Shown: piece after piece, positions 25,289 through 61,559 of the stretch
Position numbering within the stretch: position 1 is the first letter of the stretch
Layout of the letters: every line of letters begins with the position of its first letter
Assembly (NCBI GenBank): GCA_947625435.1
Contig: CANQOI010000003.1
Location: 1,591 to 65,590, forward strand
Reading direction: 5' to 3'
Source: an uncultured Clostridia bacterium
Lineage (GTDB): Bacteria > Bacillota > Clostridia > UBA1212 > UBA1255
Length of the DNA: 64,000 nucleotides
Made by a program: the position numbers and the translations under genes
The notes under the pieces: generated by a model
Databases searched by the model: none
Seen by the model: the letters and a program-made list of their open reading frames with translations, nothing else
Told to the model about the DNA's origin: nothing

Positions 25289-28200
25289 TCACTCCGAATC
25301 GGTCGTATCTGAAATATTGTCAAATACGTCTGCGTCAAGTTCTGCCTCTCCCTCTTCAAAATCAGATATTTCCGGCTCATCCGTGTCGTCAAAATCGTCA
25401 TCGTGAAGTATATCGTCCGACGGATCGGACTCGGCCGAAGCATCGCCCGACATGAATATTCCGCCCGAATCATCCGTAAATGACTGAAAATCGGGATTGT
25501 ATACGTCCTTCTTGGTCCTGTATTTATCGGGATTCTTTATATAATCCTCTTCCGCCTCTTTAAGCGGTATCTCCGTATTGTCTTCCGTAAAGATACGCAC
25601 GTCGAGAGCAAGGCTCTGCAGCTCTTTAACAAGCACCTTGAACGACTCCGGTATGCCGGGTTCGGGAACATTCTCACCCTTTACAATGGCTTCATAAGTC
25701 TTTACGCGTCCTATGGTATCATCGGACTTGATAGTGAGTATCTCCTGAAGTGTATACGCGGCTCCGTAAGCTTCGAGCGCCCATACTTCCATTTCACCGA
25801 AGCGCTGTCCTCCGAACTGTGCCTTTCCTCCGAGAGGCTGCTGTGTAACGAGCGAGTACGGTCCGGTCGAGCGCGCGTGTATCTTATCGTCAACAAGATG
25901 ATGAAGCTTAAGATAATACATATATCCGACTGTTACCGGGTTATCGAAGGGTTCTCCCGTACGGCCGTCGTAAAGTATCGTCTTTCCGTCCGGACTCTTG
26001 CCCGCAAGCTTGAGCGTGTCTATAATGTCATGCTCCGACGCCCCGTCGAATACAGGGGTCGCTATCTTCCATCCCAGTGCTTTTGCAGCGTATCCGAGAT
26101 GCACCTCTAGCACCTGACCTATGTTCATTCGGGAAGGAACGCCGAGAGGATTGAGCACTATTTCAAGCGGCGTACCGTCCGGCAGGAACGGCATATCCTC
26201 TTCCGGTAAAATCCTCGATATAACGCCCTTATTTCCGTGACGACCTGCCATTTTATCTCCGACGGAGAGCTTTCTCTTCTGAGCTATATAAACTCTTACC
26301 ATGCGGTTTACTCCGGGTGCCAGTTCATCGTCATTTTCTCTTGTAAATTCTTTAACGTCAACGACTATTCCGGATTCGCCGTGAGGAACCTTGAGTGATG
26401 TATCTCTTACATCTCTTGATTTCTCGCCGAATATGGCCCTCAGCAGTCTTTCCTCCGCAGTGAGCTCTGTCTCGCCCTTAGGAGTCACCTTGCCTACCAG
26501 TATATCTCCGGCATGAACCTCAGAGCCTACGATTATCACGCCGTTCTGGTCGAGCATGCGGAGCGCGTCCTCTCCCACATGGGGTATCTCGGCCGTTATC
26601 TCTTCCGGTCCGAGCTTTGTGTCTCTTGCCTCGCACTCATATTCTTCTATGTGTATCGAGGTGTATATGTCTTCTTTAACAAGCTTCTCGCTTATGAGGA
26701 CCGCGTCCTCGTAGTTGTAGCCTTCCCATGTCATAAAGCCTATGAGAGCGTTTCTTCCGAGAGCTATCTCTCCTTTGTCGGTGGACGGACCGTCCGCTAT
26801 CACATCGCCCTCTTCCACTCTCTGATCAAATGTCACGACAGGCTTCTGATTTATGCATGTGCCCTGATTGGAGCGCAGGAACTTGAGCAGATTGTACGTA
26901 TCAAACGTACCGTCATCGCGCTGAATGATTATATATTTGCCGGTGACGTCCTTGACTGTTCCGGAATGCTTCGCAAGCACAACGGCGCCCGAATCCTTGG
27001 CCGCTTTATACTCTATTCCCGTTGCTACGATAGGAGATTCGGCACAGAGCAGCGGAACAGCCTGGCGCTGCATGTTCGATCCCATGAGCGCACGGCTCGC
27101 GTCATCGTTCTCAAGGAACGGTATCATGGCCGCAGCCACGGACACTACCTGTTTCGGTGAAACGTCCATATAGTCGACACGTTCGCCTTCAACTTCTATA
27201 AATTCATCTCTGTATCTGCAGACGACCTTACGGTTCTTGAAATGTCCTTCCTCGTCGAGGGGCTCGTTTGCCTGAGCAATTATATATTTGTCCTCTTCAT
27301 CGGCCATGAGGTAGTCGATGTGATCGGTCACGATTTTCTTTTCGGGATCGTATTTTCTATATGGAGCTTCAATGAATCCGTATTCATTGATCCTCGCATA
27401 TGTACTCAGCGAGCCTATCAAACCTATATTCGGACCTTCCGGTGTTTCTATAGGACACATGCGTCCGTAATGCGAATAGTGTACGTCACGTACGTCGAAT
27501 GTCGCCCTTTCTCTGTTGAGTCCTCCCGGTCCCAGAGCGCTGAGCCTTCTCTTGTTGGCGAGCTCCGCCAGCGGATTCGTCTGATCCATGAACTGCGACA
27601 GCTGGCTCGAACCGAAGAATTCTTTGATCGCTGCCGTCACGGGTCTTGTGTTTATGAGCGCCTGAGGCGTTATCACGTCTTTCTCCTGCATCGCCATACG
27701 TTCGCGCACGATTCTTTCCATTCTCGAAAGTCCGATCCTGAACTGATTCTGGAGCAGTTCGCCTACGGAACGTATCCTTCTGTTCCCGAGATGGTCTATA
27801 TCATCCGTGAAGCCTATATCGTACTGCAGGTTCAGTATATAGCTGAAGGACGCTATTATATCGTCAAGCGTCAGATGCTTCGGCTGAAGATCGGGCACTC
27901 TGTTCTGTATCTCCTTCTCGAGCGCCTCGGTATCATCACCGACACGGTCAAGTATGTCTTTGAGCACTGTGTAATTTACACGTTCGGTTATGCCGTATTG
28001 TCTTACATTGAAAGGCACGTACTTCGTGATGTCCACAGTATTGTTTCCGATGATCTTAACAGGTCTGTACGATGTGTTTATGATTACGGTATTTATACCG
28101 CGATCCTGTATATCAACGGCCTTCTCCTCAGTCAGCGTCTCTCCGGCCTGTGCGATCACCTCTCCCGTTTCGGTGTCGATGACATCGGCCGCCAATGTCT

Positions 28201-29116
28201 TTCCTTCTATCTGTGAAAACAGTGAAAGCTTTTTGTTGAATTTATAACGGCCGACCTTGGCAAGGTCGTATCTCTTGGCGTCAAAGAACATTCCGTAAAG
28301 CAGAGAGCGGGCATTCTCAACGAGAGCCGGCTCACCGGGACGGAGCTTCTTGTATATCTCAATAAGCGCTTCGTCCGTATTCTGTGTCGAATCCTTCTGG
28401 AGTGTGTTCAGAAGGCGTTCGTCTACGATGGTATCCTCAACGTTCTCGGCATATGAAGGCGCGAGTTCATCCTTAGACACGGAGAAAAGGCCCAGTATGC
28501 TGCTGCTGTCGCTGTAGCCGAGGGCTCTCAGTAAGATCGTAGCGGGGATCTTTCTGTTTCTGTCTATCCTCACGTATACGATATCGCTGAAATCTATTTC
28601 CGTTTCAAGCCATGCTCCTCTGTTGGGGATGAGAGTTGATGCGGTTATATGCTTACCTTTGATCTTATCGTAATTCTTTTCAAAATATGCTCCGGGGGAA
28701 CGCACCAGCTGACTTACGATAACACGTTCGGCTCCGTTCATTATGAATGTTCCGTTATCCGTCATGAGAGGAAACTCTCCGAAGTATATAACGTCCTCCT
28801 TCATAAGTCCCGTTTCTTTATCTACAACACGTACGCGAACCTTAAGAGGAGATGCGTATGTCGCGTCTCTTTCCTTGCATTCCTCTATTGAATAATTGGT
28901 TTTGTTTTCGAGATAATAATCTACGAATTCCAGCATCAGATTTCCCGAATAATCGGTGATCGGGGAAATATCCTTAAAGACTTCTTTCAGGCCCTCGTCC
29001 AGGAACTGCTTATATGAGCTCTTCTGAACTGCTATGAGATTAGGCATTTCCAATATTTCCTGTATACGGGAATAGCTCTGTCTCTCATTCTGACCGTACA
29101 TTACCGAATGCACCAT
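25289..29116 (-). CDS. rpoB: RNA polymerase beta subunit with an acidic C-terminal tail
   Basis: 1275 aa. Contains GRHGNKGV and the rifampicin-cluster region [12 protein letters not shown]. 24 of the last 51 residues are D/E. Confidence 0.99.
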
Positions 29117-29312
29117 TGATAATCACCTCATGTTTTCTTCCTGCAAAGCTGTCTCAGCAAGGCTTGTCCTGAAACTATTGCGCACCGTATGATTTCATGC
29201 TATAATCCGCACATCAGGACGGGCAACAGTTGATATTGGTACTACGCACGGCGCGTTTTGCGTGCGCCAATGCACCGTTGTAATCAATCAGGCGATTACA
29301 ACGCAGTTTGTT

Positions 29313-29341
29313 ATTGTATCACGAAGCAGTCAACGCGTCAA
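29313..29341 (-). promoter_or_regulatory. sigma-A type promoter of rpoB-rpoC
   Basis: Minus strand reads TTGACG (29341-29336), 17-nt spacer, TACAAT (29318-29313). This leaves a roughly 190-nt leader containing a 10-bp hairpin (29276-29303). Confidence 0.55.
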
Positions 29342-29516
29342 GACGGTGATAAGGTATCTCATAAAATTAATAATTTTCACATTTTGGTTATATTGGCGGC
29401 GGTGCGATCCGGCGTTTTATATGAGAATTCGTCGAATTATATATCTTCGTATTTTATATCTTCCTATTTCATTTCAATGATGTATAATACTACCCGTGAA
29501 GGAAGGAGCGGCAGTA

Positions 29517-30221
29517 ATGAACACAGCATTGATCCTGGCCGGCGGGAAAGGCACGCGCATGGGGGCTTCCGTGCCCAAACAATATATTTTACACAACGGT
29601 AAGCCCATACTCATACACACGTTGGAAGCATTTGCCGGACATGACGGTATAGATGACATATATATAGTATGTCCGCGGGACAGTATAGATCTGACGAGAG
29701 AAATGACCGTAAAATATAACGTGTCTAAGATAGCGGGCATTTTACCGGGAGGCGCGACGAGACGCGAATCGTCTCTTGCGGGCATACGCGCCATATCGGA
29801 GGATCACGGACGCGGTGACATAGTGCTCATACACGATGCGGCAAGACCGAATGTGTCCGCACGCATCATCTCGGAGAATATATCTGCGGCGGGCAGGTAC
29901 GGCGCGTGTGAAACGGCAGTAGCCGTATGCGACACGATAGCGGTATCCGAGGACGGGCTCAGGATAAAAAATATACCCGACAGAAGGTGCCTGTACAACG
30001 TGCAGACTCCTCAGTCGTTCAGGCTCGGGGTTATATATGACGCTCACACGGCGCTTGACGATAAACTCACGGAAAGCCCCGACGCCGCAAAAGACGTAAC
30101 GGACGATGCCGCTCTCATTTTACGGAACGGCGGCGATGTTTTTATTGTGGAGGGCGACAAATTGAACATCAAGATCACAACGGAGGAGGACCTCAGAATA
30201 TTATACAATATAATGATTTGA
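29517..30221 (+). CDS. ispD: 2-C-methyl-D-erythritol 4-phosphate cytidylyltransferase
   Basis: MNTALILAGGKGTRMGASVPKQY...HDAARP. The ATG lies 8 nt after AAGGAG. Confidence 0.9.
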   Translation: MNTALILAGGKGTRMGASVPKQYILHNGKPILIHTLEAFAGHDGIDDIYIVCPRDSIDLTREMTVKYNVSKIAGILPGGATRRESSLAGIRAISEDHGRGDIVLIHDAARPNVSARIISENISAAGRYGACETAVAVCDTIAVSEDGLRIKNIPDRRCLYNVQTPQSFRLGVIYDAHTALDDKLTESPDAAKDVTDDAALILRNGGDVFIVEGDKLNIKITTEEDLRILYNIMI

Positions 30222-30241: not shown

Positions 30242-30463
30242 ATGTCCGGATGCTTGTGTATAGCAGGTTCTCAGAATCAGGCTTCGGCTATCGTTTCGAT
30301 GCTCAGGCGCGCGGGCGTAAGAAGTGAGATCGTTCCGACGCCGCGCCGCCTCGCGGAAGGCGAAGGCTGCTCGTACAGCGTGGAAATACCGCAAAAATAT
30401 GTTTCTGCCGCAATGGACATGCTGCGCCGTTCAGGCATGGACAACAGGATAGTGTGCCCGTAA
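30242..30463 (+). CDS. small DUF3343-like protein
   Basis: 73 aa. Pattern ...SQNQASAIVSMLRRAGV...VPTPRRL..GCSYSVEI...A..ML resembles DUF3343 (from memory). GGGAGG lies before the ATG. Confidence 0.55.
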   Translation: MSGCLCIAGSQNQASAIVSMLRRAGVRSEIVPTPRRLAEGEGCSYSVEIPQKYVSAAMDMLRRSGMDNRIVCP

Positions 30464-30479
30464 CGGAAAAATTTTACAC

Positions 30480-30508
30480 TTGCTTTTTGTACGGTAAAAA
30501 TATATAAT
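30480..30508 (+). promoter_or_regulatory. near-consensus sigma-A promoter with no downstream ORF
   Basis: TTGCTT (30480-30485), 17-nt spacer, TATAAT (30503-30508). Confidence 0.6.
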
Positions 30509-30514
30509 CCCGCC

Positions 30515-30736
30515 ATGGAATGTCCGGGTGTATTCCTGGGGTGTTCGACAAGAACCTGTATTTTGAACCTACATCACAAACACGGGAATCCCATGCAAGA
30601 TGTTTTTAGACCGGGCCGCAAGCTAATTCCGGACTTTTGTCCGGCAGCGGAAGGTCGATATTACACGCAGGATACCCACCTAGCTCGGCTAGGTGTCAAA
30701 ATATTGGGGCGGCATCCCGGGTATCCCGGATTTTTT
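30515..30736 (+). ncRNA. candidate structured small RNA (about 220 nt), family unknown
   Basis: Runs from promoter to terminator with no credible ORF or SD. Long-range helix 30530-30549 pairs with 30654-30675. Hairpins at 30629-30644 and 30677-30695. It ends with ccggg-tat-cccgg (30717-30729) plus T6 (30731-30736). Confidence 0.5.
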
Positions 30737-30766
30737 GCAGCAGCAACCGGAGACAGTTGCTGCTGC
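30737..30766. terminator. 11-bp perfect GC-rich hairpin between the RNA candidate and the copA 3' end
   Basis: gcagcagcaac / cggagaca / gttgctgctgc. It lies 30 nt downstream of the copA stop on the minus strand. No U-tract follows it on either strand. Confidence 0.5.
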
Positions 30767-30796
30767 GTTCATTTGACGCCCCTCAGCGTCCGCCGT

Positions 30797-33274
30797 TTAT
30801 CTCACGGCCTTTACCTTGTAATCCTGAGCTTCTACTGCCTTCCTGAGGATATCGTCCCCGACTTCCTTTTCGAGTGTTACGACAGCGGTGCCGTCCGTGT
30901 GGCTTACGATTGCCTCTTTCACTCCGTCAAGCGCTTCAAGCGCCTTTTTTACGCGTGCTTCGCAGTGACCGCACATCATACCTTCGATCTCAAGAGTTCT
31001 TTTCATTCCGACAACTTCCTTTCCTTTCTTTTTTTTCATGTTGTTTTTGCGTTTTATTCTGTGATCCTTTCCGGGATCATGTATGCGTACAAAATTGAGT
31101 CTCAGAGCATTCGTAACGACACAGAAGCTTGAAAGGCTCATGGCAGCCGCGCCGAACATGGGGTTCATCTGCCACCCGAACAGATTTATAAAAACGCCGG
31201 CCGCGATAGGTATTCCTATAGTATTATATATGAACGCCCAAAACAGGTTCTCGTGTATGTTCCTGAGGGCCGCGCGGCTCAGCCTTATGGCCGCGGGCAC
31301 ATCGGACAGGCGGCTCTTCATCAGAACTACGTCTGCGGCGTCTATGGCAACGTCCGTTCCGGCGCCTATGGCAATGCCTATGTCCGCGGCGGTGAGCGCC
31401 GGAGCGTCATTTATCCCGTCTCCCACCATCACCACGGTGCCTTCCCGCCCAAGCTCACGTATCGCGCGTTCCTTGCCTTCCGGAAGCACGCCGGCTATCA
31501 CGGTGTCGGCTCCCGCCTGAGCCGCTATGGCATCTGCGGTGCGTTTATTGTCTCCCGTAAGCATCACGACGCGTATGCCCATATTTTTCAGCTCGTTTAC
31601 GGCCTCCCGACTGTCGGGTTTTATCACGTCCGCCACTGCGATTATACCGCAGAGCTCCCCTCCCCGTGAAAAATACAGGGGCGTCTTCCCTTCTCCCGAG
31701 AGGGCATCGGCTTTAAGCCTCATCTCTTCGGGTATTTCGGCAGTGCTCTTTATAAAGCTCTCGTTCCCGCCGCACAGCCGTATTCCGCCCGCGTCCGCCG
31801 TGAGGCCGTTTCCGGGGAGCGCTTTAAAACCGGTGACATCCTCCGCCTCAATGCCGCGTTCCTCCGCGCGCATGTTCACTGCTCCCGCGAGGGGATGTTC
31901 GCTCCTTTTCTCAAGCGTGTAAGCAATGCCCAGCAGTGCTTCCTCAGTATATCCTTCCGCCGGTAAAATGTCGGTGACCTGCGGTCTTCCCTCAGTGACT
32001 GTGCCCGTTTTGTCAAGTACGACAGTCTGCGCCCTGCCTGTCTTTTCAAGAGAAGCGGCAGTTTTAAACAGTATCCCGTTTCTCGCGCCCACTCCGCTTC
32101 CCACCATTATGGCGACAGGCGTGGCAAGTCCCAATGCGCACGGGCAGCTTATTACCAGCACGGATATGCCCCTTGCCAGTGCGAATCCCACCGTCCTGCC
32201 TGCTATGAGCCATATCAATGTCGTTAAAACGGCGATCGCCATCACAGCGGGAACAAATATTCCGGATACCTTATCCGCTACCTTAGCTATAGGCGCTTTT
32301 GTAGCCGCGGCATCGCTCACGAGGCGTATTATATTGGAAAGGGTCGTGTCCTCTCCGACTTTTAGTGCCTCGCAGCGTATAAAGCCCGATCGGTTCAGTG
32401 TTCCCGCGGAAACAGTCGAGCCCTCAGCTTTATCCGCAGGTATGCTCTCTCCCGTAAGAGCCGATTCATCCACCGCGCTGCTTCCTTCTGTTACCACTCC
32501 GTCAACGGGTATGTGTTCCCCCGGGCGCACGACAAATATATCGCCCTTTACGATCTGTTCTGCGGGCACCGTTATCTCGACGCCGTCCCTGATCACTGTG
32601 GCTGTTTCGGGCGCGAGCTTCATAAGGCTCTTAAGCGCGTCGGTCGTTTTACCCTTTGAGCGAGCCTCGAGCATTTTACCCAGAGTGATGAGCGTAAGTA
32701 TCATGGCCGCGGACTCAAAATAAAATTCGTGCATGTGCTCATCCGGCTGCATGCCCGTCATGGCAAACAGCGAGACTGTGCTGTATATGAATGCCGCCGA
32801 TGAACCGAGCGCCACGAGCGCATCCATATTGGGAGCACGATTTATGATGCTTTTGAAGCCGCTTATGAAAAACTTTCTGTTTATCACCATTATGATCTCG
32901 CACAAAAGCAGCTGCGCAAGTCCTGTCGCCATGTGATTTCCGCTGAAAAACGGCGGCAGCGGCCATCCCCACATGGCATTACCCATCGAGATGTACATGA
33001 GGGCGGCGAGGAATACGAGAGATATTATGAGACGCCGCCTGAGCGCGGGCGTTTCACGGTCTTTGAGCGTATCCCCTCCTTTAACGGACGCGCCGTAGCC
33101 TGCCCCCTGTACGGCGGATATCACGGCTTCATCCGTCGCGCTGCCCTCTACTCCCATTGAGTTTGTGAGCAGGCTTACGGAGCATGATCTCACTCCGGGC
33201 ACCTTTGATACTGCCTTCTCTATGCGCGCACTGCACGCGGCGCAGCTCATTCCCGTAATATTATACTGTCTCAT
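30797..33274 (-). CDS. copA: copper-translocating P1B-type ATPase with N-terminal and fused C-terminal HMA domains
   Basis: N-terminal GMSCAACSARIE, CPC (SCPCALGLATP), DKTGT, GDGINDAP. The C-terminal 69 aa read MKRTLEIEGMMCGHCEARVKKAL (CopZ-like). Confidence 0.95.
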   Translation of the reverse strand: MRQYNITGMSCAACSARIEKAVSKVPGVRSCSVSLLTNSMGVEGSATDEAVISAVQGAGYGASVKGGDTLKDRETPALRRRLIISLVFLAALMYISMGNAMWGWPLPPFFSGNHMATGLAQLLLCEIIMVINRKFFISGFKSIINRAPNMDALVALGSSAAFIYSTVSLFAMTGMQPDEHMHEFYFESAAMILTLITLGKMLEARSKGKTTDALKSLMKLAPETATVIRDGVEITVPAEQIVKGDIFVVRPGEHIPVDGVVTEGSSAVDESALTGESIPADKAEGSTVSAGTLNRSGFIRCEALKVGEDTTLSNIIRLVSDAAATKAPIAKVADKVSGIFVPAVMAIAVLTTLIWLIAGRTVGFALARGISVLVISCPCALGLATPVAIMVGSGVGARNGILFKTAASLEKTGRAQTVVLDKTGTVTEGRPQVTDILPAEGYTEEALLGIAYTLEKRSEHPLAGAVNMRAEERGIEAEDVTGFKALPGNGLTADAGGIRLCGGNESFIKSTAEIPEEMRLKADALSGEGKTPLYFSRGGELCGIIAVADVIKPDSREAVNELKNMGIRVVMLTGDNKRTADAIAAQAGADTVIAGVLPEGKERAIRELGREGTVVMVGDGINDAPALTAADIGIAIGAGTDVAIDAADVVLMKSRLSDVPAAIRLSRAALRNIHENLFWAFIYNTIGIPIAAGVFINLFGWQMNPMFGAAAMSLSSFCVVTNALRLNFVRIHDPGKDHRIKRKNNMKKKKGKEVVGMKRTLEIEGMMCGHCEARVKKALEALDGVKEAIVSHTDGTAVVTLEKEVGDDILRKAVEAQDYKVKAVR

Positions 33275-33287
33275 ATGGAACGCTCCT

Positions 33288-33596
33288 TTATTTCATAAGC
33301 TTCTGAAGTATGGCAACAAGCTCGTCGATCACGTCGTCCTTTCCCTCTCTTATATCGCGCACGACGCACGTGCGAAGGTGGCTTGCTATAAGATCCTTAT
33401 TAAATGAATTCACAGCCGCGTTTACGGCCGCTGACTGAACAAGTATGTCGGCACAGTACGCATTTTTCTCTATCATACCTTTTATGCCCCGTATCTGGCC
33501 TTCTATGCGGCTGAGTCTGTTCATGAGCTTTTTTTGTTCTTCTCCGCTTCGCACCGTTGTCTTTGCGCAGCACTCACATTTTTCCTTTTTTGCCAT
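33288..33596 (-). CDS. csoR: copper-sensing repressor CsoR
   Basis: LMNRLSRIEGQIRGIKGMIEKNAYCADILVQSAAV..A is the CsoR/DUF156 pattern. Start moved to ATG 33596. Confidence 0.9.
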   Translation of the reverse strand: MAKKEKCECCAKTTVRSGEEQKKLMNRLSRIEGQIRGIKGMIEKNAYCADILVQSAAVNAAVNSFNKDLIASHLRTCVVRDIREGKDDVIDELVAILQKLMK

Positions 33597-33642
33597 GTTT
33601 TTATCTCCCGGTGTTACATGATCTGTTTTATTATATGTTAAA

Positions 33643-33692
33643 ATACCCCCATAGGGTATACATATTGTATACCCTATGGGGGTATCGGTCAA
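33643..33692 (-). promoter_or_regulatory. csoR-copA promoter overlapped by a double CsoR-type operator
   Basis: Perfect inverted repeat ATACCCCCATAGGGTATAC / ATATT / GTATACCCTATGGGGGTAT (33643-33685). Minus-strand TTGACC (33692-33687), 17-nt spacer, TACAAT (33669-33664). Confidence 0.7.
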
Positions 33693-61240: not shown

Positions 61241-61559
61241 ACATAATCCTCTTTCTTTAGATGTTTTGTTACGTATAACAGCTTGCGCACCTTTTCTGTT
61301 TTTCTGTCACCGTGCCGTGTGTTTCACGTTTTGGGCAATAAAAAAACCAAATTGAAATATCCTTCTTCGGAAGGATTCCAAGTTGGGCATAAAATCTGAA
61401 ACATACAGCAGAATAACATCTATACAGTATTCAGTGCATGACTTGTCGCCCGGTTTCACGAATCGGACATTCTCCACATGAGTTACCTGCCCATGCACGG
61501 TTGATCATCCGCGCGGCAGCAATCTCCTGCTTCATCGTCTGTCAAGTCGCAACAGGCGA

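Follow-up and report, generated by a model that had tools for sequence, protein, structure and literature searches.

A 6S RNA gene downstream of ispD in an uncultured gut Clostridia bacterium

The locus, its Rfam match and its relatives

Two plus-strand genes, encoding IspD (29496-30221) and a PF11823 Se_S_carrier protein of the family formerly named DUF3343 (30242-30463), precede a gap in the window, by which we mean the whole 64,000-nt stretch of DNA analysed here, and the far side of this gap is formed by copA, a convergent gene for a P-type ATPase with HMA domains (30797-33274, minus strand). A first reading, made from the sequence only, had put the gap at about 330 bp; it measures 333 bp from the Se_S_carrier stop (30463) to the copA stop (30797). 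Upstream of copA lies a gene for a CsoR-type metal-sensing repressor (33288-33692), and the minus-strand segment 30797-33692 is an apparent copper-resistance operon. On the other side of the locus, rpoB (25289-29116, minus strand, 1275 aa) is divergent from ispD across a gap of some 380 bp (29117-29495).

The content of the gap was identified by searching Rfam 15, at its gathering thresholds, with the whole 64,000-nt window, which returned two matches, RF00013 and RF03136. The first of these, to the 6S/SsrS family, covers 30530-30727 on the plus strand and reaches 56.7 bits where the gathering score is 46.4 (E = 1.4e-8 for the whole window), with an untruncated alignment that extends over model positions 1-187 of 187, demonstrating membership of the family. 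The sequence-only reading had described an orphan RNA that could not be matched to 6S, a description that is overturned by a full-length match above the gathering score. Its broader proposal, that this is an independent, strongly structured and non-coding RNA gene, about 220 nt long and equipped with a promoter and terminator of its own, proved correct. It had also foreseen what a clear Rfam match would mean, and the outcome is as it anticipated: the novelty is lowered, whereas the reality of the RNA gene is kept. A permissive Rfam rescan of 30400-30850 gave, beyond 6S, only one sub-threshold microRNA match, to MIR5387 on the hairpin at 30734-30768, which we rejected as noise (21 bits; gathering score 69). 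Neither a tRNA nor a tmRNA was found in a scan of the window for both. The second Rfam match, an S10-Clostridia ribosomal protein leader at 61443-61544 on the minus strand (RF03136, 39.4 bits; gathering score 35.1), is consistent with the Clostridia origin of the window. The features of the RNA gene are collected in Table 1.

Table 1. Positions of the 6S RNA gene's features in the window
Feature	Coordinates	Strand	Description and basis
Putative 6S promoter	30480-30508	+	-35 TTGCTT (30480-30485), 17-nt spacer, -10 TATAAT (30503-30508)
Predicted primary 6S transcript	30515-30736	+	about 222 nt; RF00013 core 30530-30727; predicted ends
Closing stem, 5' arm	30518-30545	+	partners 30711-30735; MFE fold and pair list; 11 of 24 pairs with compensatory changes
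P2 ('downstream' helix), 5' strand	30552-30566	+	partners 30696-30710; 100% paired, almost invariant
Central bubble, 5' strand	30567-30583	+	17 nt; unpaired in MFE and consensus fold
Apical (terminal) arm	30584-30677	+	helices 3-7 paired 95-100%
Apical hairpin	30629-30644	+	CCGGAC-UUUU-GUCCGG; within the apical arm
Hairpin of the 3' bubble strand	30678-30694	+	ACCUAGC-UCG-GCUAGGU; stem invariant, loop variable
3' strands of P2 and closing stem	30696-30735	+	P2 30696-30710, closing stem 30711-30735; MFE, consensus fold, pair probabilities
U6 run	30731-30736	+	directly past the closing stem; likely first termination site, from the sequence
Second, stronger hairpin	30736-30774	+	hairpin 30736-30767 (12 pairs), then UUCAUUU; terminator scan

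Relatives of the locus were collected in two ways. A genome scan with IspD identified four close relatives (IspD approximately 62% identical), Candidatus Egerieisoma faecipullorum and three metagenome-assembled genomes of uncultured Clostridia or Ruminococcaceae, all of the Bacillota, class Clostridia. The gene order ispD, Se/S-carrier gene, 6S is retained in all three of those with enough downstream sequence (L001-L003), each with a 6S match above threshold; L004, whose contig ends before the RNA, and the distant IspD homologues L005-L007 were left out. Nine further loci, all with RF00013 matches, came from searching metagenomes for a conserved pattern of 26 nt taken from the RNA, and all 12 related loci, which belong to uncultured gut Clostridia, pass the gathering score of this family, at 56-67 bits. 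A contig identical to the window in both the Se/S-carrier protein and the 6S region (L008) turned up as well, and removal of duplicates left an alignment set of seven distinct sequences.

The surroundings of the RNA in these relatives provided some further observations. In five independent assemblies (L002, L003, L010, L011 and L014) the locus ends 129-150 nt past the 6S match, and such near-equal contig ends suggest a repeat or a strain-variable boundary. An rRNA-operon-like repeat was rejected as the cause, as the tail of L001 holds a promoter and an ORF from 4461, and L012 a 304-aa ORF. The promoter in question, TTGATT-16-TATAAT with an extended -10 TG, lies on the same strand as 6S in both loci (L001 4399-4426, plus strand; L012 1371-1344, minus strand), approximately 170 nt past the 6S terminator in L001 and 325 nt in L012, and is presumably the promoter of the gene that follows. 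The window lacks such a promoter and has the convergent copA in its place.

Promoter and transcript ends

The promoter of the RNA gene had been called near-consensus in the sequence-only reading. Its coordinates and its perfect -10 element hold, but the description is generous for a -35 element that matches TTGACA at only three of six positions, and it is because of this element that a consensus scan does not list the site in the window. Conservation of the promoter is demonstrated by the relatives: the motif TTG(C/A)TT-17-TATAAT is kept in all homologues, in L012 and L009 the consensus scan does list the corresponding site, and A30515, located 7 nt past the -10 element, is invariant across the seven homologues.

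At the 3' end, CCGGG-UAU-CCCGG with its U6 run (30717-30736) is present as first described, and a terminator scan lists the hairpin 30717-30729 together with the T-run. The layout in L009 is that of the window, a closing stem and then a U-run. The hairpin that follows, originally given as 11 bp at 30737-30766, is also present and measures 12 pairs at 30736-30767. We retain it as a terminator of the 6S gene because relatives carry positional analogues, in the form of an unrelated GC hairpin with a T-run that lies 20-30 nt downstream on the 6S strand (L001 4237-4261; L012 1688-1668). It would act in tandem with the U6 run, as either the back-up or the primary terminator of the gene. The same hairpin was rejected as a canonical terminator of copA, since what follows it on the minus strand is A6 and not a U-run, and no canonical intrinsic terminator was seen when the minus strand past the copA stop was read.

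Fold, covariation and alternative readings

6S RNA is recognized as a rod of about 160-220 nt with a closing stem, a large central bubble and an apical stem. It is an abundant and stable RNA that accumulates in stationary phase, and it binds and inhibits the housekeeping (sigma-A/sigma-70) holoenzyme. The window RNA folds into this shape. Its single-sequence MFE is -82.6 kcal/mol (z = -3.67 against dinucleotide shuffles), and the RNAalifold consensus of the seven homologues is the 6S rod, with 69 pairs. Counted on the alignment, 97.7% of cells in the consensus structure are paired and compensatory changes on both sides occur at 14 pairs, 11 in the closing stem and three in the apical arm (alignment columns 96-143, 98-141 and 119-128), in a sample of seven distinct but fairly close sequences (mean column identity 90%) whose signal comes mostly from the closing stem. 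The observed pairing and covariation values were reached by 0 of 500 shuffles on every measure, and controls in which the 3' partner was slid by one to three columns were only 38-45% paired. The helices flanking the bubble are invariant and consequently uninformative for covariation. These data demonstrate both the fold and its covariation.

The closing stem is particularly well defined, with a duplex energy of -31.6 kcal/mol and a mean pair probability of 0.86. It includes the pairing of UCCGGG (30523-30528) with CCCGGA (30725-30730), which had been noted by eye as an alternative and which belongs in fact to this covarying stem; it follows that the GC hairpin at 30717-30729 competes with the stem as a local fold, and in the alignment this hairpin is not kept in the relatives. 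Both of the local hairpins that had been picked out, at 30629-30644 and 30677-30695, occur exactly where they were placed.

The sequence-only reading had also proposed a long-range helix between 30530-30549 and 30654-30675. The complementarity exists, with a duplex energy of -17.2 kcal/mol; most of the helix nucleotides are invariant in the relatives, with 86.6% of cells paired, and the invariant blocks behind it (CCUG/CAGG, GUGU/ACAC and UCGA/UYGA) set the 5' arm of the closing stem against the 3' strand of the apical arm. As a structure, however, it is supported neither by shuffles nor by covariation or pair probability. A duplex as good or better arises in 26% of shuffles, the ensemble probability of the pairs is below 1e-5, and covariation is absent among the seven homologues, with 419 of 500 shuffles reaching the observed values. 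Moreover, five of the seven homologues break the pairs at alignment columns 17-161, 18-160 and 35-141, and 3' columns of the helix covary with their 6S partners instead (96-143 and 98-141). The real partner of the 5' arm is 30711-30735, and covariation, broken pairs and ensemble probability together refute the long-range helix as the ground-state fold.

Two readings would nevertheless give this complementarity a role. It could belong to a functional alternative conformer of the 6S RNA of this clade, with the closing stem doubling as the first intrinsic terminator hairpin, an idea to which we assign only a small chance; if true, the conformer might represent an intermediate of folding, or else a state that is released or prone to decay. 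Alternatively, the helix could form the core of a novel, unclassified structured RNA. The strength of the complementarity and the invariance of its nucleotides speak for such an RNA, but Rfam assigns 6S above the gathering score and all of the evidence against the helix counts equally against an RNA built on it, which makes this very improbable.

A mainly cis-acting role, in which the RNA would either serve the Se/S-carrier gene as its 3' UTR or terminator region or modulate copA as a convergent antisense transcript, is suggested by the position of the RNA, 52 nt past the stop of the upstream gene and converging on copA, and by a modest first terminator that makes read-through into the 3' end of copA conceivable. 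Against this, the RNA has its own conserved promoter, two terminators in tandem precede copA, and the RNA is conserved in the presence of other downstream neighbours, such as the ORF on the same strand in L001. As the RNA is kept while its downstream neighbour changes, copA is not its partner, and we regard the cis-acting explanation as very unlikely. Protein coding, by the ORF at 30515-31132 (205 aa) or by a small peptide in the gap, has a practically negligible probability: although the frame is open from the ATG at 30515 across the RNA into the antisense strand of copA, the ORF lacks a Pfam match and is mostly antisense to the well-supported copA, no Shine-Dalgarno sequence was seen upstream of the ATG on reading the sequence, the ATG is unconserved, the same frame contains three to four stops in six of six relatives, none of the relatives has an open frame across the region on either strand, and homologues are separated by 1-nt indels, such that the ORF exists but is spurious and the original judgement of no credible ORF is upheld.

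We are thus left highly confident that the locus is ssrS, the gene for 6S RNA, in an uncultured gut bacterium of the Clostridia, with a sigma-A-type promoter and the canonical rod. The gene is real, but its kind is already known: it encodes a textbook 6S RNA.

Comparison with known 6S RNAs and the predicted product RNA

The window RNA shares with RF00013 the same rod of closing stem, central bubble and apical arm along a full-length match, and its conserved GUGUUCG and CCCACCU blocks align to the family consensus. The closing stem is some 12 pairs longer than the ends of the model (30518-30529 with 30725-30735) and 27 nt are inserted in the apical loop region relative to the consensus; the RNA differs from the family in nothing of substance. 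Within the family, RNAs of the B. subtilis 6S-1 type have a preformed hairpin on the 3' side of the bubble (PMC8876501). The window RNA shares this hairpin, together with an open 5' strand, with the 6S-1 (BsrA) type, and on the basis of the hairpin we group it tentatively with that type and not with the E. coli type.

The likeness extends to the site at which a product RNA would start. The template UAUUUUGAACCUAC, followed by A, is conserved in the seven homologues at the site that corresponds by homology to the start in B. subtilis 6S-1, a demonstrated conservation, and in the window it reads UGUAUUUUGAACCUAC, then A30573. The B. subtilis 6S-1 product RNA is 5'-GUUCGGUCAAAACUA (PMC12005410), and the window template is close to its complement. 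From the sequence, the window template predicts a G-initiated product, 5'-GUAGGUUCAAAAUACA, with template start at C30572 and the predicted 5' end 5'-GUAGGUUCAAAA; the B. subtilis product is G-initiated too, and 9 of 15 positions are common to both. Positions 4/5 of the predicted product would be GG and positions 9/10 AA, and the start site has an A beside it; conservation of these features across the 6S RNAs of Firmicutes has been reported (PMC8414754). The A beside the start site is likewise found in the 6S-1 type, from which the window product differs in having GG at 4/5 and not at 5/6. A further difference is that no convincing helix for collapse of the central bubble, of the B. subtilis kind, was found for the window RNA; constrained folds with the template blocked gave none that was consistent across the homologues.

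6S RNAs are open-promoter mimics that bind the housekeeping holoenzyme, and the synthesis of short product RNAs templated by them unwinds the downstream helix and frees the enzyme (PMC8876501; PMC8414754). By homology, we infer that the window RNA is expressed, binds polymerase and serves as a template for product-RNA synthesis. In this model, transcription from the gene's own sigma-A-type promoter would start at about A30515 and end at about 30736, at the U-run, or at about 30774, past the hairpin. The resulting rod would mimic an open promoter and occupy the active site of the housekeeping holoenzyme, so damping sigma-A transcription under nutrient scarcity. During outgrowth, polymerase would copy the 5' strand of the bubble from a predicted start opposite C30572, giving the product 5'-GUAGGUUCAAAAUA; the body of the template is predicted to be the 5' strand of P2 (30552-30566), as in B. 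subtilis 6S-1 (PMC8876501), and product synthesis would unwind P2 and release the enzyme.

In gene layout, the nearest descriptions are those of C. difficile and C. acetobutylicum, where 6S RNAs of approximately 175-200 nt that co-sediment with RNA polymerase are encoded by stand-alone genes with their own promoter and rho-independent terminator (PMC10117727; PMC3879012). These species share both the bacterial class and the gene layout of the window, a likeness drawn from their descriptions. In the Lactobacillales, by comparison, the 6S context is rarA/uspA (PMC8414754), whereas in the window it is ispD and the Se/S-carrier gene. The 6S gene also lies approximately 1.4 kb from rpoB, a subunit gene of the polymerase that 6S is expected to bind, although this proximity is probably coincidental.

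More generally, a promoter, a terminator and a missing coding signal were enough to spot a real non-coding RNA gene at this locus, while helices drawn by eye were unreliable. The main value of the finding lies in correct annotation of the locus as ssrS in a lineage of uncultured gut Clostridia. For this lineage, a conserved neighbourhood of ispD, Se/S-carrier gene and 6S has been shown, and the predicted product-RNA sequence gives a target to seek in small-RNA data.
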